Notes: generated by a model from the letters alone, not told the origin. Shown: positions 9,170 through 59,970, numbered from the stretch's first letter. The stretch: 64,000 nucleotides of DNA from Psammoneis japonica (GCA_008632985.1 QPGO01000145.1:1-64000), one strand, 5' to 3'. A program made the numbers and translations.

Positions 9170-10570
9170 AGACCACAACATTGTTTGGCTTTTGCTTTTC
9201 TTAGTTGTGTCCGACAGACTCGCAAGACTTTCTTTCCCTGGCACTGCTGGCGCAGCATCTTTCTCTGTGTCAGCATCGTGAGTCAAGACCGTGATGATCC
9301 CAACATTGTGCTGTGCATCAGTGACACAAACTTTGAAACATGCCATTTGATGCTCACACGCATGGAATGCTCACACTTTTTGTTGCTCACTTTGGCAACA
9401 CACTGCAAATGACACGCTGATTTCGGGGGGGTTGTGAACAGTGGGGCCAGCAGGGGGGGGTGATTTTTTTCATTGACCACAATCCTCAGCTGCTCAAGCA
9501 CATTTTCTCAAGTTCTTGAGAGTGGGCAAGATCGAAAACATGCTGCCTCAACCACATCATGAAAACGGGGGTTTCTGGCACAGGCTTCATGAGGACACTG
9601 TGTTCCATGACTTGTTCCTTGGACAACCTTGCCTTCCGGTTGGCGCAGCCCTCTGGCACACTCACTCCCACTGAATGCCCAGAGTTGTGGTGTTTTCTGC
9701 ATCCTCAGCTTGGACTGTGGATGCAAAATGGCACATCATGCAGCAGCTCCTCTCACACAAGTGACAAGGCCTGTGTTGGTGGATGGTGTGACGAGGCCTC
9801 TGACACAGCCAGACAATGGTCACTCCAGATCAAACTTTTGCAGCACCAGACATGTGTGTTGCTCTGTGTTTGTCCAACGTCACCCACTGGGCACAATGCT
9901 GAGAGATTTCATGCTGCAGCTTGCTCATTCTGGCTGGCTTCAAACAATGCAATCTTGGAGCTTCTGGATGGACTGCTGCATGGTCAATCTAAGAGATGCT
10001 GCTGTCAACCAACCCCACATGCTGTTCTCCTTGACACATGAGTGTGTTGTCGCGGGGTGCAGCATCCCTGCTGGCAGCTCAAGGCATTGACTGATGGAAA
10101 GACATGGGAGAAACGCTTCACAAGAATCAAACAGACCCTGGAGTTTTTGATGAGACCACCCTGTGCCCCCTCATGGAAAACACTCAGATTTTTAACCTTG
10201 CTGAGTGAGAAGCACCACCTGCTGATTGTGCTGTGTGGTGTGTGGCCAACACAATGATGTCTTGAGAAAGGTCACCAACTCACATGGCAACTGCAAAGTG
10301 CTGACCAGTTTGTGGATTCTTCCAAATTTGCTGTGCAGTGGAATCTGGCATTTGCGACTGTTGGCAAGAAACTTGTCTGGAGACATTTGGTGATCTTTGG
10401 GAGATGCAAGGGGGGGGCTCAAACTCACGAGGCATCTTTCTCGCAGAGTGCCCTGTCTCTCACCAGTCTCTGGAGGAGCTCTCATGTGTCTGTTGGGCCT
10501 GCTCACAGTGCACCTGGTCAATGACTGCAGAAGTGCTCTGTGAATTTGACATGCTCTGACGACTGTGGGA
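9170..10570 (+). pseudogene. Hypermutated copy of the BTB-discoidin gene family (intact relative at 54949-56011, minus strand)
   Basis: Colinear with the reverse complement of about 54880-56110 including both flanks, e.g. caagaccg(c/t)gatgatccc, ggcaagatcgaaaacatgctgcc, ggatggtgtgacgagg; frameshifted; ATG->GTG and stop TAA->CAA (10407). Confidence 0.9.
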
Positions 10571-10990
10571 CCCCTTGAGAGGAGTCTGTCACATCAGCAG
10601 TTTACCGTACATCCGTGACTGCGCTGCCGCATCCCAGACCCTGGTGGGCGCAGAGGACCCGGAGAAACAACTTCCAAACTCCCCGCAGGCGCCGCCATCA
10701 GCCATGACGGTGCAGCACCGGCAGGCTAAACAAAAAGTGAAAACCGCAACAGAAACCGCAATGGCAAGAGTTAGCTAGAGCCTCCGTTTTCATCTGACAA
10801 CTGTTTTCACAGAACTAGCTATTGGCATTCCGATTAAGCGACAGAAGATAACGCTCGCTTGGAATACTACGAGACTCTCTTGTTTCGGATTTCGGACCGT
10901 GGTCGTATCGACAGACCTGTCTATCATAGCTATCACGTTCGGGTTCGTTTCAGTCCGTTCATCCCCTTCATTATCTGGGCGAAGGCAACA

Positions 10991-11488
10991 ATGGAACCGC
11001 AACCACCACTCCCCACCAGCGTCCATCTCATCATGGGCTTCTTGGTAGTCAGCTGCGTGAGCTGGATTGTGGGTCAGGGGGGCGCGCTGATCGACTATGA
11101 TACCGCGGCCGAATGGGGCTTGCAAGTTGACAGCCGCAAGGACGCCGATCCCGTTGTCATCGAGGTCTCTCGAGGCATCGCTGTTGCTGATGTGTATGTT
11201 CAGCTTCCTCTTTTTATCCTCGCAATCTTGGGTTTGAAGCAACGGGAATTTTACGGTGCAGTGCTGACCTGGATGGCACTGGGGATGAACTTCTATTGGA
11301 CGACAGTGGCTTGGGCTAAACTCTACTTTTTCCAACAGGCAGGCGTCAGGTGTCAACCAATTCCAATCGGCCTTAACTGCACTTTGGTCTTCATTGACTT
11401 TTTCTCATTTTGGGCGTCCTGGTATCTCTACAACAACAAAGACTTCTTATTCATTCTGCTGCAAAAGCCCAAGTTTCGGGATGAATAG
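10991..11488 (+). CDS. Small multi-pass membrane protein of unknown function
   Basis: About 4 hydrophobic segments in ORF 10859-11488; first ATG at 10991; normal TA/CG content. Confidence 0.6.
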   Translation: MEPQPPLPTSVHLIMGFLVVSCVSWIVGQGGALIDYDTAAEWGLQVDSRKDADPVVIEVSRGIAVADVYVQLPLFILAILGLKQREFYGAVLTWMALGMNFYWTTVAWAKLYFFQQAGVRCQPIPIGLNCTLVFIDFFSFWASWYLYNNKDFLFILLQKPKFRDE

Positions 11489-11719
11489 AAAGCATTACAT
11501 GGCGCAGTTGATCAGAACAACGCCCAACAATGCAGAAGACTTTATCAGAATCGTAGCAAAGTTCCAGGTGAGTCGCCTAGAATGTACCAAGCAACATGCA
11601 AATGGTAATTCTAAATTCTAGAGACACTGTAGGCTAATCACCTTTCAGACTCTAAAGCAATTCATGCATGAACCAAACACAGCGTGCCATTGCCACAAAA
11701 TGTCTTTCGTGCGCAAGAA

Positions 11720-12060
11720 GATGGAGACGCAATTGGAGCTTTGTATCATTTGAAGGTTCTGCACCAGGACACAACAACAACTGCCTTGAACTGCATGTAT
11801 GATATCCGCAGCACTTCTTTTGTGACGCCATCGATGGCAATAAGGTATGCGAGAAATATGTTAACTCCGAGGGCAGCTCCACCGCCAATAGGTGAACATG
11901 CTCCGACGTGAATCATTGTAACTTCTACTGTACTTGCATCCTCACCCCGGACCACATCGAGTACGTACGTCGCGAACCGTCATTACGGCAACGCAAAGAC
12001 TGCCGCTTCTACTCTCTTGCAGTAGTAGCCACTAGTAGAGAGCGGTGGATAACGCAATGA
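11720..12060. repeat. Dispersed repeat, lightly mutated copy (homologous to about 21175-21510)
   Basis: tggagctttgt(a/g)tcat(t/c)tgaagg, cagcacttcttttgtg and catgctccgac are shared and colinear between the two loci. Confidence 0.75.
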
Positions 12061-12775
12061 AAAATCTTACGAGCAGTTGTCTATCATATCTTGCTACGTA
12101 AGTTATTCGCTTTTCGATGCGGCTTTGCCTTCTTGCAATTATCTCACATTGTTCCCGCCGCAGCACTTTCTAACAGTCTTTCCAGTCCGAAGCTCTTTGC
12201 ATCTCTCATCAGGCTTGGCAGTCCAACACGGCCGCTTTAGTCTATCAGATTGGAAAAAGCAGCTCCAGTTTTGTTGCTCGCGTGTCGGCTCGGTGTTCAA
12301 ACAAAACATTCCTGGGATTTGAGAGAAGTATGATGCGCAAATGTCATCGTCACCTTCCCGAGTCATAACTACATCAACAAAGAGTGAGCAGTGCCGCATC
12401 ACACCTCCAGAAAGTGGTCGCGTTGATAGATGAGACGTACGCAGGGATTTTAGAGCTAGCTGTTCTGTGCGCGTGCTACCGCTATGAAGTGGCGTCGTGA
12501 TTTCTAGCTGTAGCCTCATCCTGTTCCCCAGCTGGTGGCGACGTCAATCAATGCATGCCGTCAACCTGTACGCAAGCCCAACTTCTGAAACAGACCCGAA
12601 TTGGCTGCTGCCTTCTAGCTTAAACCTTAGCTCGCTGTGTTGGTTGTGAAAGAGGCTCGCAGGTTTTCTTAACCACTCGACAGATCAATGGGTCTGACCT
12701 TGTACAACTTACATTCGTGCGACCTAGTAGATAGGTCACTCATGGATGGTCCCGGGCAACGACAATGCTGCTGGT

Positions 12776-15592
12776 TTAAGCGTCAAATAAAGTTTTTCTG
12801 TTTTCGTCGTCTTTTTCGTCGTCTTGCTGAACACCTAGCTCCGGTTCCGAGAATGTAGATTCGAATGCGTCGTACTCTGTTGCTATCTCATCGGAGAACA
12901 TCTGTAAAACCACAGGTTTGCAATGAAGCTGGAACCTGTATCCCAACCCGTTGGCTTCAAACCAGTACCTAACACTCTTGACGTTATGATTATTATCATA
13001 TAGTTTGATGCCGTTGCCTTTTTTCCAGATCATTTCTTTGCTGTCAGGGACTGTCCCGATTCGCAATTTCCTGTTGCCTGCAACAAAAAAACCCTTTTCG
13101 TCGGGAATAAGTGCCTCGTGAGGTCGCACAGCTCTGTTCTTGTTATGCATTCCGGAAATGCTGTCACTAGATCGTAGAAGGATGTTCTCGATCAACTGCC
13201 ATGCTTCAGAGAAAGATAGCACGCGTTCCATAAGAAATAATTTGAACCCCACCTCTTCGAACTGTCGATTCATGTTGTCGACGCGCCTTTCTAAGTAATG
13301 CACTCGCATTCGTTCATCTTTATCCATCCGTGAACCTTGCAATGAGTGTGCGTGTACATTTGTCTTCTTCTTCGAAATGAGAGTTTGTTGAAGCCCACCA
13401 CCACCGCCGACACCCGCTTCCTCATCGTCATCGGGAAACATTTTCTCCAGTTCTCTAATCTTGCGCCTGTTCCTTTTGTTTTCAGACGCTAGAAGCCTTA
13501 CTTCGGCTCGGAGCTCCTCGAGCTCAGAAACTTTTGCTGCATCCCCTGGAATGCTGTCACGCTGTCCAACAAGCGGTTCTGATGCTGCTTCCTTGCCATG
13601 GCAGACTAGTTCGCCAGAAATGTCAACCAGTCGTAGTTTAGAAGATTTACTTGATTGTAAATCTTCGCCGATATACTTCAAACACGAATCCTTTGCGATA
13701 ACACCAAGGCATTCCAAGACGAATGTTGCTTTTTCGTCTTCATCAGCTTTTTTCAAATGGTTGTATCTGTCGTGATCTTCTTCCCAAAGGTGAAGAACTC
13801 CGACAGCAATAGTGTGTAGGTCATCAATAACCTTGAGACCGATTGGATCCAGTTCTTCCAAGGAAATCAGGTGAACCTTTCGAAGATGGCACGACACAAC
13901 CTTCTTCAATGGCTCCAGGATTGACGTCTTTATCTTTTCAATGATCGACGTAGTGTCCTTGCCGGCACCAACTTCGAAGTCGGAAAAGTTATCCATTACG
14001 CATATTTTCTTCGCAATACATCGATAGGCCAGCATGTAGCTATCCCTGCTGTTGCCATTGAAGAAATCTTCAAATATCCAGAGAAAATTCTTTTGTTTTC
14101 TTTTCAGCGGATAGGTGCACAACGAGATGATGATTGATGCACAACCCAAGAATGGGAGGTCGCTTATTACGAGACCCTTACCGACAACGTTGAGGACAGC
14201 AGCAATTGTTCCCTGGAACTTTGAGGTCAAGGCAACCGACACTGTGCCGCTGGAAATGACTTCGGCTGCAAGATAGGTTCGTTGAAACGACTGACAAAAG
14301 GCAAAGAAGTAAGCCTGAACGTGCCTCGGCATGTCTTCAAGCTCCTCGGGAAGACCTTGTATGGATTCTAGCGATCGGTCAAAATCCTCAATCTTTGCGG
14401 TGAGTTTCTGTAATGCGTTGTACTGTTCGGGGGTGAGCTGTGCCACGTCCAAACTTCGCTTCAGTTCCATGAGTTCATTTGTAGACTCGACGCCAGCTGG
14501 GCCAACACCAGTCGACTGTAACCGAGCCTCCAAAGACACAATTTGTTTCTCTAGATCGGGCACTGAAGCCCACTGAGGCAAGCTGTAAAGAGGAACAAGG
14601 GCCTCGTATTCCGCTTCGGCGCGCGCAGCAGCTGCCATTACATCTGGATCTGTCACACCTGTGGCCGCCTCAATAAAGTCTTGTAATCTCCGCACTTCTT
14701 CATCTAGTGCAGCCCTTGTTGGGAACTTCTCAGCACGATCCATTTGAAACTGCTCTTGTCTGCTCGCTTCTTCTTGAGCTGCTGCTACTCCTACAAACAA
14801 AAGAACAATAAAAAGAACAAGGTCGCGTGAGAAACAACATTTGCAGTTTTGCACTTTACAGAATCACACCATGCAGCAATTCGGCGGTAAAACCGACAAA
14901 CGCAATAACGCACGAGTCAGTTTTGGCCGAGGCGGCGGATTTCGAGTCTTGTTCATGTTTTGTTCCACCAATGCCAGAATTTTGCTTTTCAACGCATCGG
15001 AAATGCCCGAGTTGAAGTCCAGGTTCAAGCCCGTCAAACTCCCATTGTGTTGTTGTAGCATTTGCAGCAATGCTCTTGAACCGTCGTCACCAATTTGGTT
15101 GGAAGCAAGACGGAGCCACTTCAATGTGGCATTGGTTGCAAGTGCCATTGCGAGCGCTTTTGCACCGGCGTCACCAATTTGGTTGTATCGAAGATCAAGC
15201 CCTTGCAATGTGGTGTTGGTTACAAGCGCCGTTGCGAGCACTTTTGCAGCGGCGTCGCCAATTTGGTTGCCGCTAAGACCAAGCGCCACCAATGTGGAGT
15301 TGGTTGCGAGTGCCTTCGCGAGCTTTTTTGCACCGTCATCACCAATTTGGTTGCTCATAAGATAGAGCTCTTTCAATGTCGTGTTGACTGCAAGAGCCGT
15401 CGCGAGCGCTCCTACACCGGCGTCTCCAATTCGGTTGTCGTCAAGATTGAGCTCTTTCAATGTGGTGTTGGTTGCGAGTGCCGTTGCGAGCGCTTTTGCA
15501 CCGTCGTCATCAATTTGGTTGGCGTCAAGATAGAGAATTGTCAATGTGGGATCATTTTCCCGGAGACGGCGGCAGGCTTCGTCGAGTTTCAT
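12776..15592 (-). CDS. RNI/NLRC3-type leucine-rich-repeat protein with a long coiled-coil C-terminal region (predicted intron 14791-14913)
   Basis: About six 28-aa repeats N.TL..L.L..NQIGD.GAKALA.AL; phase-1 GTGCGT..TTTGTAG intron fuses ORF 14864-15646 to ORF 12776-14854 in frame. Confidence 0.75.
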
Positions 15593-15819
15593 GCTGCTGC
15601 TGCTGCACAAGTGGGAATCACGTGAGACCCGTCCACCCACACACAACCAAAAAGAGATGCAACCAAGCTAAGAGCAGTGCACAACAACAAGAATGGATCG
15701 TTTGTGCAGTGTGGTTGCGTGTTGCGTTGAAAATGTGCACGTGAAAGCAACGCGAGTTTGAAGTTGTGTCACATGTATGTATGAATACTCTCTACTACTC
15801 TAGGGCCCTAGCTAGTCTA

Positions 15820-15994
15820 CTGTCCTCATCCAGTGCCAGAATCGGGGAGAAGACCCATTACCTATTGAACCACGTACGCACGTTGGAACGTGCTGTAATA
15901 AGGGTTGGTTGTTGTTTTTCTTCGGTCACCGGCCTGTCTCATTCTTTCAAGATCGACAAAGACAAGCCGCTGTCGTTAGTGTGGTTTAATCGCT
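15820..15994 (+). repeat. Split direct repeat A1
   Basis: ctgtcctcatccagtgccagaatcggggagaag ... gtttaatcgct, repeated at 20346-20516. Confidence 0.95.
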
Positions 15995-16099
15995 ATAAGA
16001 CTGCGACGCAGGATACCTCCGCCGTCTTTGTTCTATCGCACAAAGAATTCGACACGACACGCAGTGTGAACAACCAACCACCAAACGCCGTGAATCCTG

Positions 16100-16760
16100 G
16101 TGACGGGCAACCGCCCGGGCAACCACCGCAACCACCGCCAGCACTTCACAGATTCCCGGCAGGACCTGGACACGTGCGCCGAGGACCCAGCTGTGGAGTG
16201 CTCCCGGAATCCAACGCCAGTGGCGGACATGCAGCATCACATGCAGGTGGAGCTCACATCTTGGTTTCGGCTGCAGGAGATGGCCCACAACGCCGCGGTC
16301 CCTTTCCATGCGTGCCAAGTGGTGGGCGATGCTTCGAAGGGAAACGACTCATGGCGTCACACGCTGCCACCTGCAATCACACTGGTTTCCGGGAGCGCGC
16401 CCGCCCCAACTGCTGCGACTCCCTCGTTGGCCCAGCCCGTGGGTGGTGCCGCACAAAACCCACGCCCAGGCGCACCGGGCGACAACACGCCAGTGCGCAA
16501 CCCCCAATGCGACGAACGTTTCAATGCCGTCCGCGATCGTCCCAACGTTGGGTCGCGGGAGGTAAAGCGGCATTGCACTCAGAATGGGGTCGCACTGCCG
16601 GTCGATGCACAAGGAAACCCACGGTGCCTCCCATGCCACTTGAAAGGGCAGCGCAACTCCAACTGTGGGTGTGTGGCAGACCATCATAATGACCACGCGG
16701 AGAGCGACCAGGCAAACCTCCTCACGTGGGCAACGGAGCATTGGAAGACCAAACAGGTCT
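16100..16760 (+). pseudogene. gag-like ORF remnant of the YR retrotransposon
   Basis: Cys/His cluster CLPCHLKGQRNSNCGCVADH immediately upstream of the RT region. Confidence 0.55.
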
Positions 16761-16949
16761 TCGGCAACGGCCCGAGTTCGGGGACTCTGGGCCGAGAGCC
16801 TTTTCAGCTGCCACCGGCATCGTTGGCAGTGCCGCCACCCCCGCAGGCGGAGAGAATCACAGACAGCAACAACCGCAGCACCTCACGCACGCAGGCCATT
16901 GCACACGCTGTGCAGACTGATGAACCAGGTGAGCAGACATTACTTGACA

Positions 16950-18960
16950 CACAATTGCTGCGTCTCAGAGGACTGAGTTACTTGTTGCATCGCCGCAGCG
17001 GCAGAGGGGACTGGGGACCGTTGCACCGCACACACAAGCACCCAGCCCACAGGCTGCTGCAAAACTGCAAATGCCGCGGCGTCCCCACAACCCTCGCAGA
17101 CGCACCTTGGACACCTCAAGAGCTTGAAGCAAGTTTGGCCAGGGGGGCACACAAGTCCGCCTGTGAGCATGTTGAGTTCCTGCGGGAGGACATGGCCGAC
17201 TGCATCGACAAGGGTTTCTGGGTGGTCCTCCCACATGAGGACATGAAGGAAACCCCAGGATTGCGGCTGAGCCCCATTGGCGTGGCACCCCAGTGTGGTC
17301 GGCGACCACGACCGATCGTCGACTGCACCTTTTACGGCACCAACAACGCGACTCAGCCCAACACCCCGACGGAAGCCATGCAGTTCGGCCGCACCCTGGA
17401 CCATTTGCTGCGCCGCATTTTGCTGGCAAATCCATGCACGGCCGGGTTCACCTCATGAAAGTCGACCTTGCAGATGGCTTCCATCGGGTGCACCTTAACC
17501 CCGATGACGCCCAACAACTCGGGGTGGTTTTCCCACACCTGCCGGGCAAACCCCCTTTGGTGGCCACACCCACACGGTTGCCCATGGGATGGGCCAATTC
17601 GCCACCGTGTTTCAGTGCCGCTGCCGAGACGGTGGCCAACTTACAGCTGGTGCGCGCCGCGACAGCGCCACCACACCCATTGGAGCAATTGGCATCCAGC
17701 CGGGTGCCAACCCATGTGCCCCCACCAACCTCACCACCCGCAACAATCGCTGTGCCGATTCCGACGTCACCAGACCCACACCTCAACCCGAGCCGCCGCC
17801 GGCGCCTAGCCTGCATCGACACATGCGTCGACGACTTCATTGGCGCTGCGCAGGGGTCCGCCGCAGCCCAAAGAAACATGCATCGTGTGTTGTTGCACAC
17901 AATCGACGATGTCTTCCGCCCCACGGATTTGAATGACGTTGCTGCCCGCAAAGAGCCCGCATCAGTCAAAAAGCTCCGCAAGGGTGACGCCACATGGTCC
18001 ACACAGAAAGAGGTGTTAGGCTGGCCAATTGACACCCTGGCAATGACACTCCGACTTGCCCCTCGCCGGCGTGCACGTCTGCACGACACACTCTACAAGG
18101 ACTTCCCCCGCACACGCAAACGCGATGCCGTCCAGGATTGTCAGAAACTCCTGGGAGAACTGCGTTCCCTCGCGGCAGCCATGCCCAGCTCGCGAGGCCT
18201 GTTCTCCAAATTGCAGGAGGCCCTCCGCCACACTACACCAGATTCACGCATCCGACTTGCGGCCAACGTACATTCCATGCTGGACGATTTTCGTGATCTG
18301 CACCAGACCCTGGACTCACGTCCTGTCCGCATCCAAGAGCTCGTGCCACTGCCTCCAACTGCACACGGCTGTCACGACGCTGCCGGCCACGGGGCCGGCG
18401 GGGTGATCGTGCCAACGCCCACCGCAGTCCCCCGAGCCGCCAAGCTACGCCATTCCTCTGGCCGGCGTTGCACTCAACGTGATGCAGGCCCTGTCGCATG
18501 GCGCCTGCGATTCCCCAAGGACATCTCCAACTCACTCGCCACGTATGAGAATCCACACGGCCCCATTGCCAATGCCGACCTTGAACTAGTCGGTGGCATC
18601 GTCCATGCCTGCGCAGCTGCCGACACTTACGACATCCGCGAGCGCACCAACCTCAACCGTGCGGATGACCTTGGCACCATGCATTGGCAATGCAAGGGAT
18701 CGACCACCACAGTGAAACCGGCTTCAAAGCTCCTCCGGCTCCAAGCGTGCCATCAATGCCAACATGTCACACAGGCCTCCATGATTGTCACCCGGGCACT
18801 TGGAACCGAGCGGGTGACGACGCTTCGCACTTGCAACACTTGTCTAATGTCGCGTTCCTTTCTTGTTTGAATTCTGCTTACCCACAGAGCAAGTCTTGGC
18901 GTCTGTGGACCCCGCCACCCGAACTGCGTTCTTACGTGATCTCGGCGCTGTGCAGGAAGC
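16950..18960 (+). pseudogene. Reverse transcriptase-RNase H of the YR retrotransposon (frameshifts near 17435 and 18760)
   Basis: LRLSPIGVAPQ..RRPRPIVD, KVDLADGFHR, RLPMGWANSPP, T[C]VDDF, KEVLGW, DAAGHGAGG, NADLELVG, N..GDDAS. Confidence 0.88.
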
Positions 18961-20041
18961 AGTGCAACGCAGCGTCACCTCTTCCCGAGCCTCCGCCGCC
19001 GACACCCACTGGAACCTTTGGATCAACTTTTGCCGCCAACTGGCCATCAGTCCATTTCTCGAAGACACCAACGATCCCATCCTCTTCCTGCAAGTGTTCC
19101 TCCATCGATTCCGCACCGGTGTCATCACACCAAGAGGCAATCCCGTCCGGGCGCGCACCGCTGAGGATGCCCTGCGGTCGGTTGGGCAGACGTTCGCTGC
19201 AATGGGGTCCGCGGACCCACGTCTCACACCCCAGGGCGGCATGGATTTCCGTCTTGCCCATCAAATCCGTTTTTACAAGAAACAGGATCCGCCGCCCGAC
19301 TGCGTTAAACCAGCTCCAGTCAGCGTCCTCCTCTGGATCTTGCACGCCGCCGCCCTCAGCAACAGCGCCGGCACCAAGGCCATTGCGGATGTGATCACAA
19401 TCGCCTTTTTCTTTTTGCTTTGCCCGGGTGAATGCACAGCCATGCCATCCGACACCACTCCGTTTCACTTGGCAGATCTTCGTTTGACCTCGGGCGGAGC
19501 ACATTTGAACCCATTTGCCACCGCGGCCCCTGCCCTCTTCGCCGCCACCCTCAGCTCCCTCACTTTCGCCACCCAGAAAAGTGGCGTTTGCGGCAAAGTC
19601 ATTGCGCACAGCCTGTCAGGCCACCCAGACCTTTGCCCAACCAGGGCCCTCGTCTGCCGAGTTGTTCACTTGCGCACCTGCGGAGCGCAACCCGACACCC
19701 CCCCAGGGGTGCACTTTGAGAACAGCAGGTGGCACGCCGTTTCCCCTGCCGACATCACGTTGGCACTCCGCACCGCCATCATTGCCCCAGGTCCCAAGAA
19801 CCTGGGCTTCACACCGGCCAATGTCTCATCCCGCTGCCTTCGTGCAGCAGGCGCAACGGCACTGTTGTGTGCCCATGTCGACACCGACCCAATCCGCCTC
19901 TTAGGCCGGCGGCGCTCTGATGAGATGCTGCGCTGCTTGCGCCTGCAAGCCGAGCCTGCCATGCATGGCTTTGCACAAGCCATGCTCGCTGGGGGCAATT
20001 TCGTGCTTCACCCGAATGCTGAAGTGCCCATTGCCCCGTAA
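18863..20041 (+). pseudogene. Tyrosine recombinase of the retrotransposon; frame open but catalytic residues mutated
   Basis: IAFFFLL[C]PGE[C]T, TQKSG, LCPTRAL, LRAAGATALL, RLLGR[R]RSDEMLR[C]L, where LRPGEY and GRWRS....RY are expected. Confidence 0.9.
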
Positions 20042-20140
20042 CCATGCTCCACCAGCCCTCCAGATGGGCCCACCCGCCCAGTCCCAATGCATGTTTGGCC
20101 AGCTGCTGCACCGCCTGCACATCAGTGGGTGGCGCTGGAA

Positions 20141-20344
20141 GCCCTGCCGTCCAGCTTTGGGTGGGGAGAAAACCTTCACAGCGCCAGCAAAGCCATCTCC
20201 ACTCCAAGCACACAATGCATTCCATGAAGTTTACATCACTTTAGAAGAGAGCACGTGACCAGTGGTTTGAACCCACCGTTTCATTCCAGGAGCGCGCTCG
20301 TCCATCCCCGACACAAAGCACGCATGAGCAAAGTGGTGGCAACC
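20141..20344 (+). repeat. Split direct repeat B1
   Basis: gccctgccgtccagctttggg ... gtggcaacc, repeated at 20537-20739. Confidence 0.95.
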
Positions 20345-20345
20345 G

Positions 20346-20516
20346 CTGTCCTCATCCAGTGCCAGAATCGGGGAGAAGCCCCATCACCTGTTGAACCACG
20401 TACACACGTTGAACGTGCTGCAAGGGTTGGTTGTTGTTTTTCTTCGGTCACCGGCCTGTCTCATTCTTTCAAGATCAACAAAGACAAGCCACTGTCATCA
20501 GCGCAGTTTAATCGCT
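20346..20516 (+). repeat. Split direct repeat A2
   Basis: Copy of 15820-15994. Confidence 0.95.
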
Positions 20517-20536
20517 CCCACCTCTCCCACCCTCTG

Positions 20537-20742
20537 GCCCTGCCGTCCAGCTTTGGGCAGGGAGAAAACCTTCACAGCGCTGGCAAAGCCATCTCCACTC
20601 CAAGTGCACAATGCATTCGATGAAGTTTACATGCTTTAGAAGAGAGCGCACAACCAGTGGTTTGAACCCACCGTTTCATTCCAGGAGCGCGCTCGTCCAT
20701 CCCCGATGCGAAGCACGCATGAGCAAAGCGGTGGCAACCACT
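20537..20742 (+). repeat. Split direct repeat B2 (element right end)
   Basis: Copy of 20141-20344. Confidence 0.95.
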
Positions 20743-20849
20743 CCACTAGAGAGTAGAGAGTGGAGACTGTCTGGATGCGAGCGAGTGATGAGAACGTCAA
20801 AAAACGTCTGCACGCCAGTGCGTTTGGGGGTCTTCCCGGTTCAATTGTT

Positions 20850-21180
20850 TGTGCACTCCAAGATCATCTGACGACATGCAGAAGGAGTGTGACCAAGGCA
20901 TGCATTTGGCAAGATCCCTGGAAGACATGAAATGCAAGAGCTTTGACTCCAAGAAGCCAACCTTGCGGGTGTCCACGACAACATGGACAAGAGCTGCCAG
21001 ACCACAGAGCTTGAAAAGAAAGAACAAGAAGACATGGAGCTGGAGTGCAAGTGTAAATTTGACCTGAGAGAGTGCTGTGACAGCAAGGTGAAGCAGTTTG
21101 AAGATGACAAGGTCGCTGCATTTGCCAAGATGCCAGATGATCATTGCACCAAGCCAGTGAAACAGAGAGAGTGCAAGATG
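20850..21180 (+). mobile_element. Degenerate gag-like fragment, homologous to about 39680-39775
   Basis: aagcagtttgaa ... ca(t/c)tgcaccaagcca shared; translations KQFEDDKVAAFAKMPDDHCTKP vs KQFEKNKTATFTRILGNHCTKP. Confidence 0.5.
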
Positions 21181-21510
21181 GTCCCAAGCTGGAGCTTTGT
21201 GTCATCTGAAGGCCCTGCACAATGACACAACAACTGCCATGAACTGCGTGTGATGTGTCATCCACAGCACTTCTTTTGTGCCACCATTGATGAATGCAAG
21301 GCATGCAAGAAACAGGTGATTTCTGAGGGCAGTTCCCTGTCAATGGCCGAGCATGCTCCGACTGTTGCAGCTGCTGCACTGCTTTCATCCTTGCCTCAGA
21401 TCACATTGAGCACGTCCGTCGCAAACAGTCATGACGGCAATGCAACAACTGCCACCACTGGAGTGCGACTGGCAGAGTGACAGCCAGAGAGCAGTGGGTT
21501 GTGCGATGAA
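21175..21510. repeat. Dispersed repeat, hypermutated copy of about 11720-12060
   Basis: Colinear similarity with TA and CG sites replaced by TG/CA. Confidence 0.75.
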
Positions 21511-24228
21511 CAAGCTCAGAATGTGGGGCCCCATGTCTTTCTATGAAAGTTTGACTCGGCTGCCATTTTGCCATTTGATGCGGGTTTGCCTTTTTGCCAT
21601 GTTTTTTCACATTTTTCCTGCCACAGTGTTTCTCACAGTTCTTCAAAGATTCTCATGCATGAGGGGTTTCCCACATCTCATCAGGCTCAAGAGGACCTTG
21701 AAGTGCACCCACAATCAACATGTGCTCACACACACACAAGTTTCTGTGATTCTTGACTCACATCTGGGCATCCACAGCTTGCTCCTCATCCATGTTGCAA
21801 GGCAGCTTGTTGATCTCAGCCTCCTGAACAACCTTGTGCTTTTCCATCTGCTTGCTCCATTTCTTCTTGTGCATGAAAATGACTGCCACAACACCAATGG
21901 CGAAGGCTGCCCCCAGAACACTGATGGCCACAATGGCACCATTCAGCCATCCATTGTCCCCGCCACCCTCTTGTTCAGTTCAGTGCCCTCATCAAGCACT
22001 GCAAATGCCTTCTTGAGGGTCTCTGTGAGCTGGATTTTTCATTGTCATGGGGACCAGGAGTGCGGTGCCCTCAAAACACCCTGAAAATGCCTTGTTGAGG
22101 GTCTCTGTGCTGGACTCATCCTTTTCATGGGGGGAGGGGCAGTGTCAGCAAAGAAGATCTCAACAACAATGTCCTCATGGACATGGCCAGGATGATTTTG
22201 TTGGTCTTGTTGCTCCTGATGCAAGGAGTCATTCTCAGGTCACAAGCTTGCAACAATCTCAACCCCCTTGTGTGGTCCCTCTGAAGCCTCCCAATGTCAA
22301 TGAATCTTGTTTGCACAACCATTTCAATGCCACCCCTCAGCGCCATCAGCACTGTGGCAGCAGGTGCTCTGTTGAAAACAGCAGCCTCAAAACTGTTGCA
22401 CAGCACTTTGGCTTCATTGCCAAAGCTTTGCAAGGGGCACAACTCTGTTTCACCTGCAGAAGAGATGTCGCTGGTGAGACCTCCATTGTTGCTGCGCTGC
22501 TGTGTGCAGTGATGGGCATCTCACAGTGCAGCTGCCATCACATGCACTGCAATGCCACACTTGAGCATTTTCAATGCAAACACAAAAAGTGTGCTCTGCT
22601 GACAGCAAAATGATGCCAAAGCTGCAGCACCTTGCATGTTTGTGATCTTGTCTTTCAAAACAGGCTGCACATGCACTCAGTGGCACATGCAGTGCCCAGT
22701 TGCAGTTGCCCCATGTGTCAATTGCAGCAGAGACTTTTGCTGCCCACTGGCTGTCACCACCACATCACTTGTCAACATGGTTTGTTCATCCCTGTTTGAT
22801 TTTGGACAAGACTGGGCAGCAGCCAAGACCCAATGTCTGCACACATGCAAGCAGGATTTCTGCCATTTCCAGTGTTGTGCTGCCAGCAGCTCCAAGCACA
22901 CTCCTCCACCCCCTGTGTCTCCAGCTCTTGTTTTGGGGATGTGCTTGGGCACAGAAGATCTCTGCTGCCCCCCCCCCCCCCCCCCTCCTTGCTGTGGACA
23001 AAAGCTGCCCAGATCTGCACCCCAGCAAGATGGTGCCCACCAATGATCCCCAGCAGTGTGTCACAAACAACTTGTTTTAACAAGGGTGTGTCCCTGGGCC
23101 CAGAGTCTCTCCACTGATCTGTGAGCCCCTCTTCCGGGTGTCATTCTGCCTGCCACTCCTTGGCCAATGGTGTGTGCAGCTGCAGCTGCTGTGAATGCCA
23201 ACCCCACTCTCAAGCCCTCTTTTCTGATGGACTCTCACAGAGTGCTCAAGACCCTGGCTCTTGTCCAGAGGCTGAGGTGCTGGGACGCTTGTGTCCCTTT
23301 GTGGAAGCATGTGAGCAACTCTGCTGCAAGTCTCTTCCACACCTGAGTTGTCTTCTTTTTGACAATTCTTTTGATGGGCTCAAGCTGCTTGGTGTCAGAA
23401 GTGGAAAGTTGCCAAGAGTGTCCTCCCATGTGGACAAGTCATGAGCTGAGTCACCAGTTGACTTGCACCGCAAGAGGAGGATTGGAGCACCACAGGTCCC
23501 AAGTGAGGGGCAGATTGGCACCAGAAATGGGGCAAGATCAAAACCCCAAGTCAGCATCAGTGGAGCAAAGTCTTGCAATTTTTGGAAGAAGAAGATCAGC
23601 AAGATGCCACCACTGGCCTGCAGCTTCAGAAGCCTTCATCACTTCAACACAGTTTGACCAAAGCACAGGGGGGGGGGGAAGCTGTGGAGAGTCTGGGCAA
23701 AATGAGATGACAGACTGTGATGAGAGCAGCAAGTCTGCAAGATTTTTGCTGCAGCTCTCTTCTGGAGAAGAGAAAGGTTTTCTCAGGTGTGGCAGAGATG
23801 AAAAGTTCTTTGCATGTGCAAATGTGCGTTTGAGAGCTTGCAGGGCAGCAAAGCAAGCTGCAGATCCAGACATGTCAATGGACAAGAGAAAACAACAGCA
23901 TGGTTGATGCACCAACTGAAGTGTTCAAGAAGCAAACAGCTGCAAAAAAGCAAACAAAATTTGTGTGGAAAACACAAACCTGACTGTGGAATTTCATGAC
24001 TGAGGTGCAGTGGCATGCAAAACAAATGCAACACAGTGGCAACCTTCCAACAAGTCAACAAGGAAGTCATGATTGTGACAGTGCCGTTCAACAATGCAAA
24101 GAAAAAGCATGCTGGAGTGTCAGCCAGCAAGCAGCAATCAAAAGGAAATGTGTTGAACATGGTGGACCTTGAGCCACTCTCTTTGTGGATGGAACAAGCA
24201 CCAAGATGTTGGTGACAATGAAGTGGGG

Positions 24229-47529: not shown

Positions 47530-49210
47530 CATCAGTGGCTCTGCTGACAGTTGATGAAGACAACAAAAACTCTGCAGTGTGGAGTGCATGCATCAGCTGG
47601 GGTGCATGGCTGATGACAACTGTCACCCAGGTGGTTGGGCAACAGCTGACCACTGCATCATTGTGTTGAGAGACAGCACAGCAAATCAGTGCCCAAATGA
47701 GTGAGGGCATTTATGGGGTGCTGCTGATTGTGCTGCTCTGATGCATGGCTGCACAACACCCAGATTGCAGCAGCCCTTTCTGCATGCTGGTGCACAACAG
47801 ACATCTGGATGGAGCACAAATGTGGGTGGCTGGTGTGTTGATGACTGCAACATGGTTGGAAAACCAACCAAAATTGTGAGGTGTCACAAAGCACATGAGA
47901 TTAAAACACAGCCATTCACAATGCAAATCAAGTTCCAGCCACAACCAGAGAAGGCCATGGGAGTCAAGAGGAGAGGTCGCGGGCTCAATTGTCAATGAGA
48001 AGCCAGCAGGCTGACATGTGACAGTTGGTCATGGCTGAGTTGCAAGCTGCAGACAATTTTTTTGAGTCAAACTCAGCACCCCAAACCTCATTTCCTTCAC
48101 ACTCTTTAATCTCTGTTGTGTGAGGCATGGTGTGCAGAATTGCTCTTTAGAAAACACTGCTTGGACCAAATTCCAGATGATGAGGAGGAAAGTGGCCCTG
48201 AAAAAGATGTGCCTTCTCTTTGGTTTTCTGCTGATGGCACGACAAGGCGCACCTGATGACAGTCCATCATGGTGCACAAAGTGAGTTGAAAAGTCAGCAG
48301 GGCTGTTCAATCTTTGCTTGAAGCCACTGACAAGCTCAAAGATTTTGAAGTTTAAAGCCTCTGTTGCTTGTTTCCCAGGCCAGAGCTGAAGCTGACACAA
48401 CAAGCTGTCAGATCCACAATGTGCACCATTTTGTTTTGTGCTCTTCCCAACACTCTGGATGCAAGTGTTGAGCCAAGAAAGACCAGCAGAGGTGGCCCTG
48501 GGCCACTGCATGGTGGTGGCATTGATCTGAGGTGCTGGGTTGGCAGCTTGAGTCAGGAGGACATTCTTCACAGCACAGACAAAAGGTCATTTGGTCAAGT
48601 CTCTGTGCAGGGTGCAAAAAAACTTGGTGTCAGCTCTTTGTCAAATCATCAGCCACCACCAGAAAGTTGGTGTTTGCACCAGATGACACTGCAAACCCAG
48701 GTTCCTAAAGACAGCATGCCTTTGTGATGCATGTTCTTTGGCAGACACACATGCAAAAAGATCTGCACATTGTTGAAAAGCTCACAACATGCCAGAAGCC
48801 CCAGACACACTTTGCTCCAGTTGGAGGCAGCACATGATGAGGGAGCAGTGTGGCAGAGCAGTGTTTTGCACTGCGGTCCTCTTTTGGCTCTGTTTTGGCA
48901 AGTGTGTGTTCTTCAAAACAAGCAACTGGCATTGCAAGCCACACAAAAAGCTGCATTTGTTGTGTGGCATTCTTGATGCTGGACTCAGACACCTGCCTTG
49001 CACGCTGCCTGATCAAAAAAAGAGGAGACTCCTCCTGGTGGCTGTGACACTCAAAAAGTTTCTTTTGGGTCTTCTTTTTTCTTTCCCTTTTGCTCTCACC
49101 CTCACTTCTTCTTCTTCTTCAGCAGCACGGAATGTTTGCCACAACAACACAACATCATTGTGGCATGAATCACATCATCTTGTTTGATTGTTGTCACAAT
49201 TGTGCTTTTT
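47530..49210. repeat. TA/CG-depleted degenerate block, probably transposon relics
   Basis: Near absence of TA/CG with sharp edges. Confidence 0.5.
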
Positions 49211-51727: not shown

Positions 51728-52102
51728 TCTTGTTGCAGGTGTAAAAAAAAAGTATTGCTACGCAACAGAAAGATCCATAATGGGAAACAGGCCATGTTTC
51801 ATTGTATAAGAAGTATCTATTTAAGTTGATATCAAATGCGTGCTACTACTCTTTTTCTCTAGTCGATCGGTAAATATTGTGTTAATACAGCATTCGAAAA
51901 GCCACTACTAGAGAACGTATTATTTTCTTCTCTAGAGAGAAATGCGGATTTCTTTACAAGTTTACCTACCTTGCCTAGGCAGTATGATTTGAAATCGTTG
52001 ATGCCGATTGCATTCGGCTCACTCTCTATTACAATTATCAATATTTTGTACAGGTAACCGCCAGTCATGGCGCCGTAGCCATATCATTATTATTAGAAGT
52101 AT

Positions 52103-53945: not shown

Positions 53946-54407
53946 ATGGTAGGCCAAGAGAGTTTATTGGCGGGAGATGTTGTCAAAATGTGTGGAAAAG
54001 AGAGGGACGTCACAAAAGGCCGAAATGTTTCTGGTCGTTCTTGGAAGGTCCGACCACAAAAACGTGCATCGTCTCTGGTGTCAACCCGTGCCAACAACCG
54101 CAAAAAATCATGGCAAGCAAAACAAGAAGAACGTAATCAACGAAAATTAATGTTGGAACAAGAAAAAGAACTCAAGGAGGAAAAACGACAGGCAGCTATT
54201 ATGAAAAAAGAGCGACGACTCGAAAACGAAAAACGACGTGCCGAGAACGAATTCAAGACGGCTCAGAAATCGGCACAACAACTCAATCTCGAGAAGGTGG
54301 GTGTGACCATGAAGGCCATGAGTAAGAAGCAACTGAGACAAATAAAGAAGACAAGAATGAACACCAAGACGGGTGTTGTGGAGTATGTTCCAGCTTATTC
54401 GAAATGA
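53946..54407 (+). CDS. Cgr1/CCDC86-like ribosome biogenesis protein
   Basis: GRNVSGRSWK motif, basic coiled coil, MSKKQLRQIKK. Confidence 0.75.
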   Translation: MVGQESLLAGDVVKMCGKERDVTKGRNVSGRSWKVRPQKRASSLVSTRANNRKKSWQAKQEERNQRKLMLEQEKELKEEKRQAAIMKKERRLENEKRRAENEFKTAQKSAQQLNLEKVGVTMKAMSKKQLRQIKKTRMNTKTGVVEYVPAYSK

Positions 54408-54948
54408 ATGCGGGAGCTGCCATGGCCGGGATGAATGGGCCGAGTGTGCAATTACCTACACCTACTCTACATATTACACCGTGATTATCTTACTTAGAAA
54501 GCGAATCAATGGGTATTACAAAACGTGGTTGAGTTGGGTATTCTTGAGTAAGAATGAGAAACTTAGAGTGAATTGCTTCGAAATGCTCGTACTACTCATG
54601 GTGTCTTGGGTGGAAACAACCTTCTCTGAAGCAAACATTCCCAATTCACGCATACTGTATTGTTTATAAATATCCCGATTCTTCCATCAGAGTCGATAAC
54701 AAAGATAACCGTTACAGTAGTACGTACTGTAGAGCATCAATCCGTGGATAAGAGAGCGTCCCTATAGAATGAGCTTACGTTGGATGGCAAGTCTCACCGT
54801 TGCGTATCCAACAGACTTTGAGACTGTATGATAGCGAAGAAGGTCAAAGCCGAACCCTCGATACAAACTATAGCAGACACTCAAGCAGTTCCAAAGTCAA
54901 TCAGAGAATGTTATATATACTACAGTACTTCTACAGTTGCTAGCTACC

Positions 54949-56011
54949 TTACATCTCCCGAAGATTGCCAAAGATCTCCAGACCAGTGCCGTGCCAACAG
55001 TCGTAATGGCCGTCTTCGTCCTGTAAACAGCGAATTCGGAAGAATCCATAAAACGTGTCACCACTTTGCACTTGCCACGTGTATCGGTTGTATTTCTCAA
55101 GGTACTCAGTCACATACTCAGATCTTTCAGACTCAGTTAAATCATATTTTTCAATTTTTTCCAAGACTTCTTCCCGGGTATTCTGGTCGAGCCCTCTGTG
55201 GTCCATTTGATTCTCGCGAAGTGTTTCCCACGCCTTTCCATCGGTCGATGCCTCGAACTGCCAGGGACATCGCATCCCATAACAGCATTCATGTCGAAGG
55301 GAATAGTGTGTGGGATTGACAGCAGCTCCTCTTAGATCGACCACAGCAGTCCATCCAGAAGCTCCACGATAATCACAATGTGTGAAGCCATGTTGAGCAA
55401 GCTGCAGGGGCATGGTTTTTTAGTGTGCTCAGTGGGCGATATTGAACAAACATGGAGCGAACCATGTCTGGTGAAGCAATACTTCGACATTCTCTAGCGT
55501 CAACATCGTCTGTGTCAGAGACCTCGTCACACCATCCGCCGACGTGGACCTTGTTGCTCATATGGGGGTTGCTGTACCCTTTGCGTCCGTAGTCCGTGCC
55601 GAGCATGTAGAACACACCACGACTCTGGGGATTCGGTGGACATGAGTGCACTGGCGGTTCACACCGGGTGGCAAGGTCATCCAAGGCATAGAACATAGCT
55701 TCATCGTGAAGCCTGCGCCAGAAACCTCTGTTTTCATGGTACGGTTGCGGCAGCATGTTTTCGATCTTGCCAGTTCTCAAGAACTCGAGAACGTACTTGA
55801 ACAACTCAGGATCGCGGTCGATGAAATAAATCGTTCGTCCCCACTGGTCTTGTCCATAGACGCCCCCCGGAGTCATGTCGTTCGTTGTGTTTCCAAACCG
55901 TGCTGAAAAGTACGAGCCTTCCACGCTTGTAAGCGTCGTGCGGTAAGTAACAAAGGTCGTGTCGCTGACGCACAACACAATGATGGGATCATCGCGGTCT
56001 TGACGACTCAT
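54949..56011 (-). CDS. KCTD-type BTB/POZ plus discoidin (F5/8C)-like protein; apparent frameshift near 55415
   Basis: FVTYRTTLT....SYFSARF, YFIDRDPELFKYVLEFLRTG, EAMFYAL; C-terminal PTHYSLRH, WQFEASTDGKAW, LEIFG. Confidence 0.82.
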
Positions 56012-56462
56012 GATGACAGAAACTTGTCAGTGGAAAGTCTTGCAAATCTGTCAGACACAACTGAGTAAAGCAAAAGTGAATCACAGCGATTGCGATCTCT
56101 AGTAGAGGCTACTCTAGAAGCCATTGCGTCGCTGTTGTGTAGCCATTGCTGGTTTCCGGTTGCGCCCATGCGCAGTGAATGGCTGGTACAGCACGACATA
56201 CCAAATGCCATAAACTTAAATATTTGACATAGCCAACGCATACAATTATATATATTTCTAACGTTTTTCCCATTATCCAGAAGCAAGAAAAAAGTAATAT
56301 CAATTAAGTCACATTCGTATATTAGGAATTCGAATCCTGCAACGGTTTCGGTGGGTTGCAACGGCAAGCAACCATTATTTTGAATTTCAAATTCCTTCGC
56401 AGTCAACCAACGAACGCAATTCCACAATTCGAACACCTCCTTGTCGCCACTTTTTCCTGACT

Positions 56463-58443: not shown

Positions 58444-58722
58444 AGTCTACTGTGGAGAGCGAGGTATTGTGCTCTCGAGTAGCTTTTGTTTTTTTGGCTT
58501 CCCGCAATATCAAGATGGGCGCCAAGGGATTTTTCACCAGATGAAGATGTATCAATACACACCACTTGACACAGCAATTCCATGATCATCGTCATTCAAC
58601 GAGAAGCTCAAATAATATTTTCTCCCTTGACAATGCGCATAGTTTTTGATTAGATTTCCTTTAATTCGTATTTTACGGCTGAGCGTGCTTCTGTTGTATC
58701 TGGCCAGGCTTTTAGTAGAAAG

Positions 58723-58784
58723 AAGCTTTACCGCACAGAGTGCTTGGGTTTTCAAGCTTTACCGCACAGAGTGCTTGGGTTTTC
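58723..58784. repeat. Exact 31-bp tandem duplication
   Basis: aagctttaccgcacagagtgcttgggttttc twice. Confidence 0.9.
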
Positions 58785-58789
58785 CATCA

Positions 58790-59970
58790 GACTGTCGGCA
58801 TTGTGAAGCTGGACAAATAATGGCAATGTCCTCAGTGAGGTAAAACAAGCCATTCATGTGATGTGAGTCCACTGGAGCGCAACCAGCACAGTGACTGCCA
58901 AGATGCAAGGAGAAATTTTTGACACAGGTTTATGATGACTGACTGATTGCATCTCCTGAAGATCACCAATAATCTCAAGTCATTCCATGCCAGAAGTCAT
59001 GATCACAGCTTTCCAATGAGCAATGAATTTGAAAGAAATGACAAAACTCACAAAACTGGTCTGTGCTTTGTGATGTTACCAAGTAAATTGGTTGTGTTTT
59101 TCCAAGCACTCAGTCACACACTCAGGCCCCCTTTGTGTTCAGGAAGTGTTTTCATGCTCATTGTTTGCTCCAGTTGATGCCTTGATGAAACAGCAACAGC
59201 TGGGCGCCAGTGAAAACACTCACGCCAAAGAGAGCTGTGCAAAAGATGCAATGCAGCCTCTCAAAGCTTGTTGATCACAGCAGTCCAAGCACCAACATCA
59301 TCTTCAGCACATTGTGCAAGGCCAGAATGAGCAGGGGGTCAATGCTGTGCTCTGAAAGTTTGCTTGGCAGATGATGCTGACGAACATGGAGAGAACACAA
59401 TGACAGGACCTTGCTCCTGCTGCACACAATGTGAGGGTTGTGGTTGATTTCCTGTTTGTGATCATCTGTGTCCAAGTGTGCAAAACACACCACCATTCTT
59501 CAGAATGATTTAGTGGATGTGAGTGCTCTGTGCACTGGTGGGCTGTGGTCCAACCGGGCAGCCAGATGTCACGTTCAGCAAGGGCGGCAGCAATGATCGA
59601 TGATGAACAGCTGTGCAGCACATCCAAAGTTTCTGTGTGAGATGCAGTCAAGCAGTTAAACCAAAGAGTGAGCCAGCCAACAAGTGTGTAAGACAGGGGC
59701 TCGCTCAAAATTCTCTCCACAACAAAAAGCAGCAGCAGAGCCGCAGTGGCCCCGCACAACAACAATGACACAGCACCACCAGCAGCAGGCACTCTCGCTC
59801 AGCAGCATGAGAAACTGCAGCATCAGCACTTTTGGAGCAGTGGACACCTTTGTTTTCTGGGTTTGAAAAAATACTTGAGTTTGGACCAGAGGTTTTGAGG
59901 GCTTGGTGTGCTCTTGCCGCTTTGCCGTGTGTTTGATGATTTTGCGGCAATGCCGGCCAGCCGTCAGGAG
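58790..59970. repeat. TA/CG-depleted degenerate block
   Basis: Same composition as the other hypermutated blocks. Confidence 0.5.

Follow-up and report, generated by a model that had tools for sequence, protein, structure and literature searches.

Depletion of TpA and CpG in discrete segments of an ochrophyte genome window: probable TpA-directed hypermutation alongside CpG decay

The 64,000-nucleotide stretch of Psammoneis japonica DNA analyzed here (GCA_008632985.1, QPGO01000145.1:1-64000; referred to below as the window, this one 64-kb region being the scope of the analysis) contains discrete, sharply bounded segments that have lost nearly all of their TA and CG dinucleotides. The loss is probably the product of two processes acting in place on this ochrophyte DNA, namely TpA-directed A:T→G:C hypermutation of the type reported in a preprint on Bigelowiella natans (Mettrop et al., bioRxiv 10.64898/2026.01.13.699255, April 2026) and ordinary CpG decay. 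In the first process, TA would be converted into TG or CA in equal measure, and in the second, CG would be converted into TG or CA, most likely by deamination of 5-methylcytosine; both routes end in TG/CA, and old segments would therefore be left almost without TA or CG. The TA process would be enzymatic, aimed at silenced or foreign DNA and able to inactivate mobile DNA irreversibly, and the loss of CG from the older blocks may reflect a second process that is slower and affects the same silenced DNA.

In sliding 1-kb windows, the affected stretches have observed/expected ratios (o/e) of 0.00-0.10 for both CG and TA with TG/CA at 1.8-2.3, and the neighboring genes have a CG o/e of 0.8-1.3 and a TA o/e of 0.35-0.77. 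Segmentation of the window yields eight fully depleted, sharply bounded blocks with a total length of 15.2 kb, which together contain 121 CG, 41 TA, 1786 TG, and 1768 CA, against about 866 CG and 584 TA expected if each dinucleotide were as frequent as in the normal regions of the window (binomial p of 1e-230 and 1e-194, respectively). A depletion of CG and TA with an excess of TG and CA beside normal genes had been claimed in an earlier note made from the sequence (the original prediction), and this claim holds. The first block (9320-10472; 15 CG, 2 TA, 141 TG, 124 CA) belongs to a decayed copy, with homology over 9182-10411, of a BTB_2 gene region at 54947-56083, and the last (58883-59776) includes a second, more decayed copy of the same region (58947-59396 against 54949-55462). 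The block at 20946-24271 contains a stretch (21175-21644) homologous to normal DNA at 11718-12182, with other parts homologous to the depleted DNA at 38.4-39.8 kb, and the block at 38162-40956, flanked by two normal open reading frames (ORFs), shares two stretches with it; this old homology between depleted blocks pairs 20.9-21.2 kb with 39.4-39.8 kb and 22.7-22.9 kb with 38.4-38.7 kb. The remaining blocks are located at 27617-28616 (6 CG, 2 TA, 119 TG, 125 CA), at 29291-32477 (34 CG, 5 TA, 382 TG, 373 CA; with neither a paralogue in the window nor terminal repeats), at 43373-44698 upstream of a patatin-like gene, and at 47581-49104 between the patatin-like gene and a monogalactosyldiacylglycerol (MGDG) synthase gene.

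The edges of the blocks are sharp to 100-200 bp: one or two bins of 100 nucleotides (nt) are enough for the share of CG and TA among pyrimidine-purine (YR) steps to drop from about 45-55% to 0-10%. For example, successive bins across the left edge of the block at 47581-49104 contain 13 of 30, 4 of 22, and 0 of 30 YR steps as CG or TA, and those across its right edge 1 of 28, 10 of 21, and 15 of 30. The total of YR steps is the same in depleted and normal DNA (0.245 and 0.244 of dinucleotides), while the share of CG falls from 0.057 in normal DNA to 0.008 in depleted DNA, that of TA falls from 0.0384 to 0.0027, and that of TG and CA together rises from 0.149 to 0.234. The loss of CG and TA (0.085) therefore equals the gain of TG and CA (0.085) with YR steps held constant, as expected if transitions within YR steps were the sole change. 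The stop triplets are correspondingly skewed on the two strands of the blocks (769 TGA, 47 TAA, and 21 TAG), and the lack of TAA and TAG leaves long spurious ORFs that are rich in Cys and His and free of Tyr, so that the ORFs in the blocks are probably by-products of this lack. The absence of Tyr from the ORF at 27077-28057, which had been pointed out before, was confirmed (0 Tyr in 327 codons). The region of 16-33.3 kb, by comparison, had been described as a single block nearly without CG and TA, and it is really a mosaic of a TA-poor retroelement with normal CG, fully depleted blocks, a partly depleted element, and two normal copies of a miniature inverted-repeat transposable element (MITE); across 15.8-20.7 kb TA is lost and CG is kept (CG o/e 0.8-0.97), and across 24.2-27.6 kb the depletion is partial (CG o/e 0.5-0.66, TA o/e 0.13-0.20).

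Copies of the same sequence inside and outside the depleted blocks show which changes have taken place. The normal BTB_2 gene region (54947-56083, minus strand; Pfam BTB_2 with E 1.3e-10 on 55376-56026, minus strand) serves as the unmutated reference for its two depleted copies, and its alignment to the depleted 9182-10411 spans 1249 columns at 68.6% identity. The 65 CG of the normal copy correspond to 26 CA, 23 TG, and 6 CG in the depleted copy, and the 34 TA correspond to 14 TG, 9 CA, and a single TA, with 79% of TG and 73% of CA being retained. Similarly, the normal stretch at 11718-12182, which has no long ORF, contains 24 CG that are represented by 10 TG, 8 CA, and 6 unchanged CG in the depleted 21175-21644, and 16 TA that are represented by 7 TG, 8 CA, and 1 unchanged TA. 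When counts are pooled per strand, C→T changes are found at 67 of 184 cytosines in CG and 45 of 543 in other contexts (Fisher p 1e-17). The corresponding comparison for A→G, which had been fixed beforehand in the original prediction, gives 44 of 121 at TA and 69 of 648 in other contexts (Fisher p 4e-11), with the normal copy as an approximation of the ancestor. The ceiling of these per-strand rates lies near 0.5 because a single hit destroys the dinucleotide. The changes are thus transitions confined to TA and CG, and the differences between copies that had been noted earlier (CG or TA against TG or CA, and TG against CA) are borne out by the alignments.

The outcome of a TA change is TG as often as CA, and both strands are therefore hit. 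The order of TG and CA outcomes along the blocks gives runs-test z values from -2.9 to +1.0, and the control genes give values from -3.1 to +1.8; strand-coordinated patches, the mark of processive single-strand deamination, were sought along the blocks and none were found. The hits are strand-symmetric and essentially independent from site to site. The flanking bases have a marked effect, with 27 of the 41 TA surviving in the blocks lying between a pyrimidine and a purine (Y-TA-R: 12 TTAA, 13 CTAA/TTAG, and 2 CTAG), against an expectation of 15% from normal regions or of 22% if the survivors were newly made from TG or CA (p ≤ 2e-9). None of the 41 is R-TA-Y (ATAT, ATAC/GTAT, or GTAC), against a baseline of 32% in the normal regions. 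R-TA-Y has been eliminated and Y-TA-R partly survives, which points to a preference for A→G at T-A-pyrimidine or, equivalently, for T→C at purine-T-A. Among surviving CG in all blocks, a separate enrichment of GCGC is seen (15.7% versus 5.1%), and within the block at 29291-32477 a cluster of CG has been kept at 31900-32400 in GC-rich contexts (GCGC, CCGC) with TA still lacking.

The TA process can be separated from CpG decay in a DIRS-like retroelement at 15820-20742 (plus strand), which has three ORFs encoding among them a reverse transcriptase and a tyrosine recombinase, and in which TA is depleted and CG is retained. The element carries split direct repeats (A1, 15820-15994; B1, 20141-20347; A2, 20346-20516; B2, 20537-20742) in the order A1 ... 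B1-A2-B2, with 91% identity between A1 and A2 and also between B1 and B2, a layout that we take to be typical of Ngaro/PAT-like elements. For the second ORF, 238 homologues reach E ≤ 1e-5 (best 9e-180), many of them with PF00078, and the RVT_1 match of the window copy itself is weak (E 0.0028). The third ORF has 3027 relatives, and Foldseek matches its AlphaFold model (pLDDT 84) to Cre recombinase (E 1e-6, probability 1.0); Phage_integrase was matched weakly by 8 of 30 members of the recombinase family (best E 0.0057), and a profile search of solved structures by sequence gave nothing useful for this ORF. On its reverse transcriptase, the Cre-like fold predicted for its recombinase, and its split repeats, 15820-20742 is classed as a DIRS-type element. 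The interior of the element (15995-20140) has a TA o/e of 0.167, a CG o/e of 0.86, and a GC content of 0.61. The medians of 80 metagenomic relatives, which were fetched with patterns that favor intact copies, are 0.63, 0.85, and 0.53, respectively. The TA o/e of the window copy is below that of all 80 relatives (range 0.30-0.87), and its TG/CA value of 1.50 is above their maximum of 1.47. The element has lost TA and kept CG, and the TA process is therefore independent of CpG decay and faster than it, which upholds the earlier proposal that the loss of TA is a transition process apart from the decay of 5-methylcytosine.

The proteins of the DIRS-like element record the same change. The closest relative (L001, 63% protein identity) has 38 TA, which correspond in the window copy to 14 TG, 9 CA, 5 TT, and 3 TA, and the window ORF contains 5 TA against 21-42 in ten relatives. 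A reverse transcriptase column with Tyr in 116 of 118 homologues is His in the window, and Cys replaces the Tyr that 15 of the 16 nearest homologues have in the YVDD box. Similarly, the window copy has Cys in both of the recombinase columns where 57 homologues have Tyr, among them the column of the near-invariant C-terminal Tyr; residue 363 of the recombinase would be the nucleophile, as judged from its near-invariance, its position, and general knowledge of such enzymes. The codons at the lost Tyr columns are CAY or TGY, 4 of 15 conserved Arg are now Cys or His, and the share of Tyr in the three ORFs is 0.43% compared with 3.1% in the normal genes of the window. As read from these alignments, the change of TA to TG or CA has destroyed the putative catalytic tyrosines of the element. 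Two relatives of the DIRS recombinase, L006 and L075, were noted in addition; L006 has a TA o/e of 0.38, a CG o/e of 0.48, and the highest TG/CA (1.47) of the 80 relatives, and could represent a copy, hypermutated in part, from a different organism. Directly upstream of the element, 14867-15667 (minus strand) contains five tandem 84-nt units (15076-15614) encoding 28-residue LRR_6 repeats (Pfam E 1e-39).

Terminal repeats within single elements place the changes after integration. An element at 24242-27636 (plus strand) with 319-nt direct terminal repeats (24242-24560 and 27321-27636) is partly depleted and has a high copy number, with a read depth of 3000-18000 compared with about 55 in single-copy sequence; a search for a target-site duplication gave no clear one. 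Its two repeats differ by 36 transitions and 2 transversions, and at 13 dinucleotides one repeat has TG and the other CA, so that these sites must have been hit independently in each repeat. Repeats A1 and A2 of the DIRS-like element differ by 10 transitions and 1 transversion, and B1 and B2 by 15 transitions and 1 transversion, compared with 6 transitions and 6 transversions in the pair of MITE copies. In eight of the nine A1/A2 changes that involve CG or TA, the CG or TA is in A1 and the TG or CA is in A2, which adjoins fully depleted DNA. Such repeats are identical at integration and now differ at CG and TA sites, and they have therefore been mutated in the chromosome.

The targets that could be identified are the DIRS-like element, the terminal-repeat element, and two BTB_2 gene copies, and a number of repeated sequences in the same window are spared. 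A MITE of about 400 bp with its own terminal inverted repeats of about 25 nt is present at 28760-29161 (plus strand), where it serves as an unmutated control, and a second, inverted copy of normal composition is found at 32607-33008 (minus strand). The copies are rich in both TA and CG and 96.5% identical, have 28 TA and 22 CG in common, and keep 28 of 29 TA. Their read depths of about 38900 and 48000, respectively, are some 700-870 times the single-copy depth of about 55, and hundreds of copies must therefore exist. An interpretation of the inverted 400-nt arms at 29.2-32.6 kb as terminal inverted repeats of a transposon around a depleted interior was rejected, each arm being a complete high-copy MITE. 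Similarly, the normal BTB_2 region at 54947-56083 and the 11718-12182 paralogue are untouched, and several fully depleted blocks have single-copy depth and no detectable paralogue. Repetition is therefore neither necessary nor sufficient for depletion, and the description of the process as repeat-targeted in the original prediction was not substantiated. The 11718-12182 homologue is normal in composition even without a long ORF, and missing coding constraint is therefore no explanation for the depletion either. Targeting looks element-specific, state-specific, or episodic.

The nature of the DNA within the blocks was sought in several ways. Pfam searches of 27 and 133 ORFs, which in the blocks covered those of at least 90 residues, gave no family for any of the fully depleted blocks; the depleted ORF at 21410-22081 had no match in a sequence search, and an Atlas look-up of the ORF at 29143-29943 gave low recognition (1039) with a best score of 0.79. 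A scan for 3-periodicity of purines, a measure that transitions leave intact, was mostly flat in the blocks when old reading frames were sought. Exact matching in purine/pyrimidine space, transition-tolerant local alignment, and tblastx (noisy) revealed no further paralogues, and the ends of isolated blocks, when inspected, showed no terminal repeats.

Sequencing reads support the blocks as real DNA. In a public read run (X1), 95% of the sampled 31-mers of the block region 29300-32470 are present, and contigs built from 31-mers over 20741-22983, 27607-28549 (0 differences, depth 64), and 29811-32640 (1 difference, depth 70) each agree with the assembly with 0-1 differences, in place of the TA and CG that accurate reads might have restored at these sites. 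Word depth in X1 is 54-112 over depleted blocks and 52-62 over the normal genes at 33.2-38.5 kb, with 255-351 in the block at 38162-40956 from 38.5 kb onward. A modification that is read differently on the two strands would have halved the depth over the blocks, which is not the case. For the isolate sequenced, the blocks are true DNA sequence, and a consensus or base-calling artefact is excluded. Four of the nine read-versus-assembly differences listed inside blocks lie at remaining CG or TA sites and are CG→CA or TA→TG, which hints at continuing change. No RNA data set was listed as containing the depleted stretch. A second run of the same sample (X2) is deep over some genes and has almost no cover on the blocks, and has no bearing on expression.

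The original prediction knew of no described eukaryotic pathway with this spectrum, and one has been reported in part: hypermutation of TpA to TpG or CpA in integrated viral DNA of B. natans. According to the preprint, 231 of 302 new single-nucleotide mutations in 15 mutation-accumulation lines fell in giant-virus and virophage regions, and the GC-biased mutations of the viral regions were all TpA→TpG/CpA, arising in some of the lines at about 6e-7 per site per generation, some 1000 times the background (Mettrop et al., bioRxiv 10.64898/2026.01.13.699255). The same source describes 124 clusters in the B. natans genome that are poor in TpA, rich in CpA and TpG, and enriched in reverse transcriptase domains, DDE domains, and unannotated genes, and it proposes an ADAT2-like protein as the deaminase. 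The likeness to the Psammoneis window extends to A→G and T→C exclusively at TpA with mirror symmetry, in discrete segments beside DNA changing at a normal rate, and to a long-term footprint that is TpA-poor and CpA- and TpG-rich and coincides with reverse transcriptase or transposase domains and unannotated sequence. The two cases differ in host (a rhizarian there, an ochrophyte here), in target (giant-virus and virophage inserts compared with a DIRS-like element, a terminal-repeat element, and BTB gene copies), and in extent, as the viral region of B. natans has a TA o/e of 0.45 whereas the blocks are near 0 and saturated. The main text of the preprint contains none of the terms CpG, diatom, trinucleotide, and flanking and reports no flank preference, whereas in the window CpG decay runs alongside, R-TA-Y is lost, and Y-TA-R is spared; CpG change is absent from the DIRS interior (CG 0.86 versus a median of 0.85), and the older blocks have lost CG too. 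De novo rates were measured in B. natans, and the footprint described here is read from sequence. By analogy, the TA half of the signature appears to be what was reported for B. natans, here in the form of a saturated fossil record left in another major lineage, on retroelements and gene copies. In the literature covered by our search, which is less than the whole, the signature was reported for B. natans and for no diatom or other stramenopile.

The CG half of the signature resembles the decay of methylated CpG in vertebrates and plants, where CG→TG and CG→CA occur in equal numbers, and diatom transposons are reported to be CG-methylated (PMC9998398); we infer that methyl-cytosine decay is responsible. 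This decay differs from the TA half in that it cannot yield TA→TG/CA. A part played by methylation, silencing, and defense in the window, as first proposed, is putative.

The likeliest chemistry of the TA process would be deamination by a TadA/ADAT-like enzyme that works on DNA and attacks adenine in T-A-Y. In the anticodon loop of tRNA, TadA/ADAT deaminases naturally act on the U33-A34 step, followed by C in the bacterial case, and the T-A-Y motif fits this substrate. A wider and more tentative proposal, which we regard as possible and nearer to doubtful than to probable, is that Rhizaria and ochrophytes have in common a defense by adenine editing at the DNA level, in which a TadA/ADAT-like deaminase that has kept its taste for U-A-pyrimidine is sent to newly silenced mobile or foreign DNA and converts T-A-Y to T-G-Y on either strand until TA is gone, without depending on cytosine methylation; such a system would be a natural base editor of adenine in double-stranded DNA and a mirror image of fungal RIP (repeat-induced point mutation). 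A clearly less likely chemistry is that a modified base at the palindromic TpA of silenced DNA, either 5-hydroxymethyluracil (5hmU) or 5-formyluracil made from thymine by a TET/JBP-type oxygenase or N6-methyladenine, miscodes at replication, yielding T→C or A→G one site at a time, and no adenine deamination takes place. 5hmU has been linked to TpA in other protists. Events that are independent of site and exactly strand-symmetric would suit a symmetric modified dinucleotide over processive single-strand deamination, and the second depleted step, CG, is palindromic too and likewise a place where a 5-methylpyrimidine occurs. The effect of the flanks (T-A-Y or R-T-A) suits either chemistry, and the authors of the B. 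natans preprint favor an ADAT2-like deaminase, for which the evidence they present is sequence and predicted structure (bioRxiv 10.64898/2026.01.13.699255).

Four further explanations are much less probable than these. Heavily modified DNA (with 5-methylcytosine or modified A or T) could have been miscalled as TG or CA by the platform or the polisher, and if miscalls depended on the strand and the consensus caller chose between them at random, TG and CA would likewise come out in roughly equal numbers; such an artefact is very improbable in view of the agreement and undiminished depth of the X1 contigs, the ordinary transversions and indels that accompany the changes in old copies, the scaling of the changes with element age, and the de novo origin of the TA part in Illumina-sequenced lines of an independent organism (bioRxiv 10.64898/2026.01.13.699255). 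Editing of element RNA or cDNA before integration, with ADAR-like A→I and APOBEC-like C→U activities, would likewise be a deamination-type transition process directed against mobile or viral nucleic acids, as it is in animals. Retroelements are among the targets here, and ADAR-type enzymes prefer a 5' U (bioRxiv 10.64898/2026.01.13.699255). We give this explanation little chance, as ADAR and APOBEC act on RNA or single-stranded cDNA with strand asymmetry, whereas in the window terminal repeats of single elements differ at the affected sites, TG and CA outcomes are equal, and a gene copy that is not a retroelement (BTB_2) is affected as well.

A duplication-triggered process like RIP has in its favor that some depleted blocks have paralogues in the window and that the two partly depleted elements are multi-copy, and RIP also leaves irreversible, context-specific transitions in chromosomal mobile or duplicated DNA, with sharp blocks of skewed dinucleotides and inactivated genes. 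It is nevertheless hardly credible here, since RIP turns CpA into TpA and produces an excess of TA, whereas in the window TA is destroyed (0.0384 to 0.0027) and CA and TG accumulate, an opposition in direction that had been recognized from the start. RIP moreover hits all copies of a duplication, whereas the paralogues at 54947-56083 and 11718-12182 and the high-copy MITE family keep their TA and CG, and the main target in B. natans is described as single-copy (bioRxiv 10.64898/2026.01.13.699255). The least probable explanation is selection or native composition, by which functional or foreign sequence would avoid TA and CG by nature, an avoidance of CpG and UpA being seen in many RNA viruses and in some elements (PMC3829696); comparisons with paralogues and outgroups show that ancestral TA and CG were normal, the blocks have little codon periodicity and no homologues, and the catalytic residues of the DIRS-like element have been destroyed.

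Several points weigh against the combination of TpA-directed hypermutation with CpG decay that we prefer. Two unmutated MITE copies sit within the depleted region, and the 5' repeat A1 of the DIRS-like element keeps 13 TA in 200 nt, so that either the process is old or episodic or it is targeted at a scale below that of a chromatin domain. A mobile or foreign origin is putative for most of the blocks, which have no recognizable protein, paralogue, or terminal repeat. That the normal paralogue represents the ancestor is assumed, several of the counts are small, and the direction of the edited strand in mixed flanks is only a trend in the polarized pairs (Y-TA-Y to 17 TG and 8 CA, R-TA-R to 2 TG and 5 CA; Fisher p 0.09). 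In addition, X1, a run of unrecorded platform, may be the read set from which the assembly itself was made.

Descriptions of TpA-directed hypermutation have so far come from one species in one preprint, and a saturated footprint in a distantly related, plastid-bearing stramenopile suggests that the process is widespread in marine protists. The window extends the range of affected DNA beyond viral inserts to retrotransposons and gene copies, and it sets the TA process cleanly apart from the decay of CpG methylation. The T-A-Y flank preference narrows the search for the enzyme, and a DNA adenine deaminase, should the enzyme be one, would be the natural equivalent of the engineered adenine base editors. 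Copies that undergo the process diverge very fast and are therefore missed by repeat finders and homology searches.

The genes of the window are uninterrupted eukaryotic ORFs, including an aspartyl protease, the MGDG synthase, the patatin, and a cyclase followed by a phosphodiesterase. A fatty-acid desaturase has at most 73% identity to database sequences, and the matches with named organisms among the 120 listed are from diatoms and raphidophytes, which indicates an ochrophyte alga, plausibly a diatom, and not Bigelowiella. The 695-residue ORF at 12776-14863 (minus strand), which has normal composition, no Pfam family, and acidic stretches resembling coiled coils, adjoins the normal homologue at 11718-12182. 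Positions 3-6290 form a large duplication in inverted orientation, 57% identical across 6.4 kb, and the two genes that it carries are divergently placed and have CBM_4_9, CEMIP beta-helix, and G8 domains. A 100-nt inverted repeat with 82% identity (33162-33262 and 54025-54124) lies in DNA of normal composition beside two different genes. Near the end of the window, at 61625-63999 (minus strand), a guanylate/adenylate cyclase ORF is directly followed on the same strand by a 3'5'-cyclic nucleotide phosphodiesterase ORF, and the two are probably parts of one bifunctional gene that runs past the window end.

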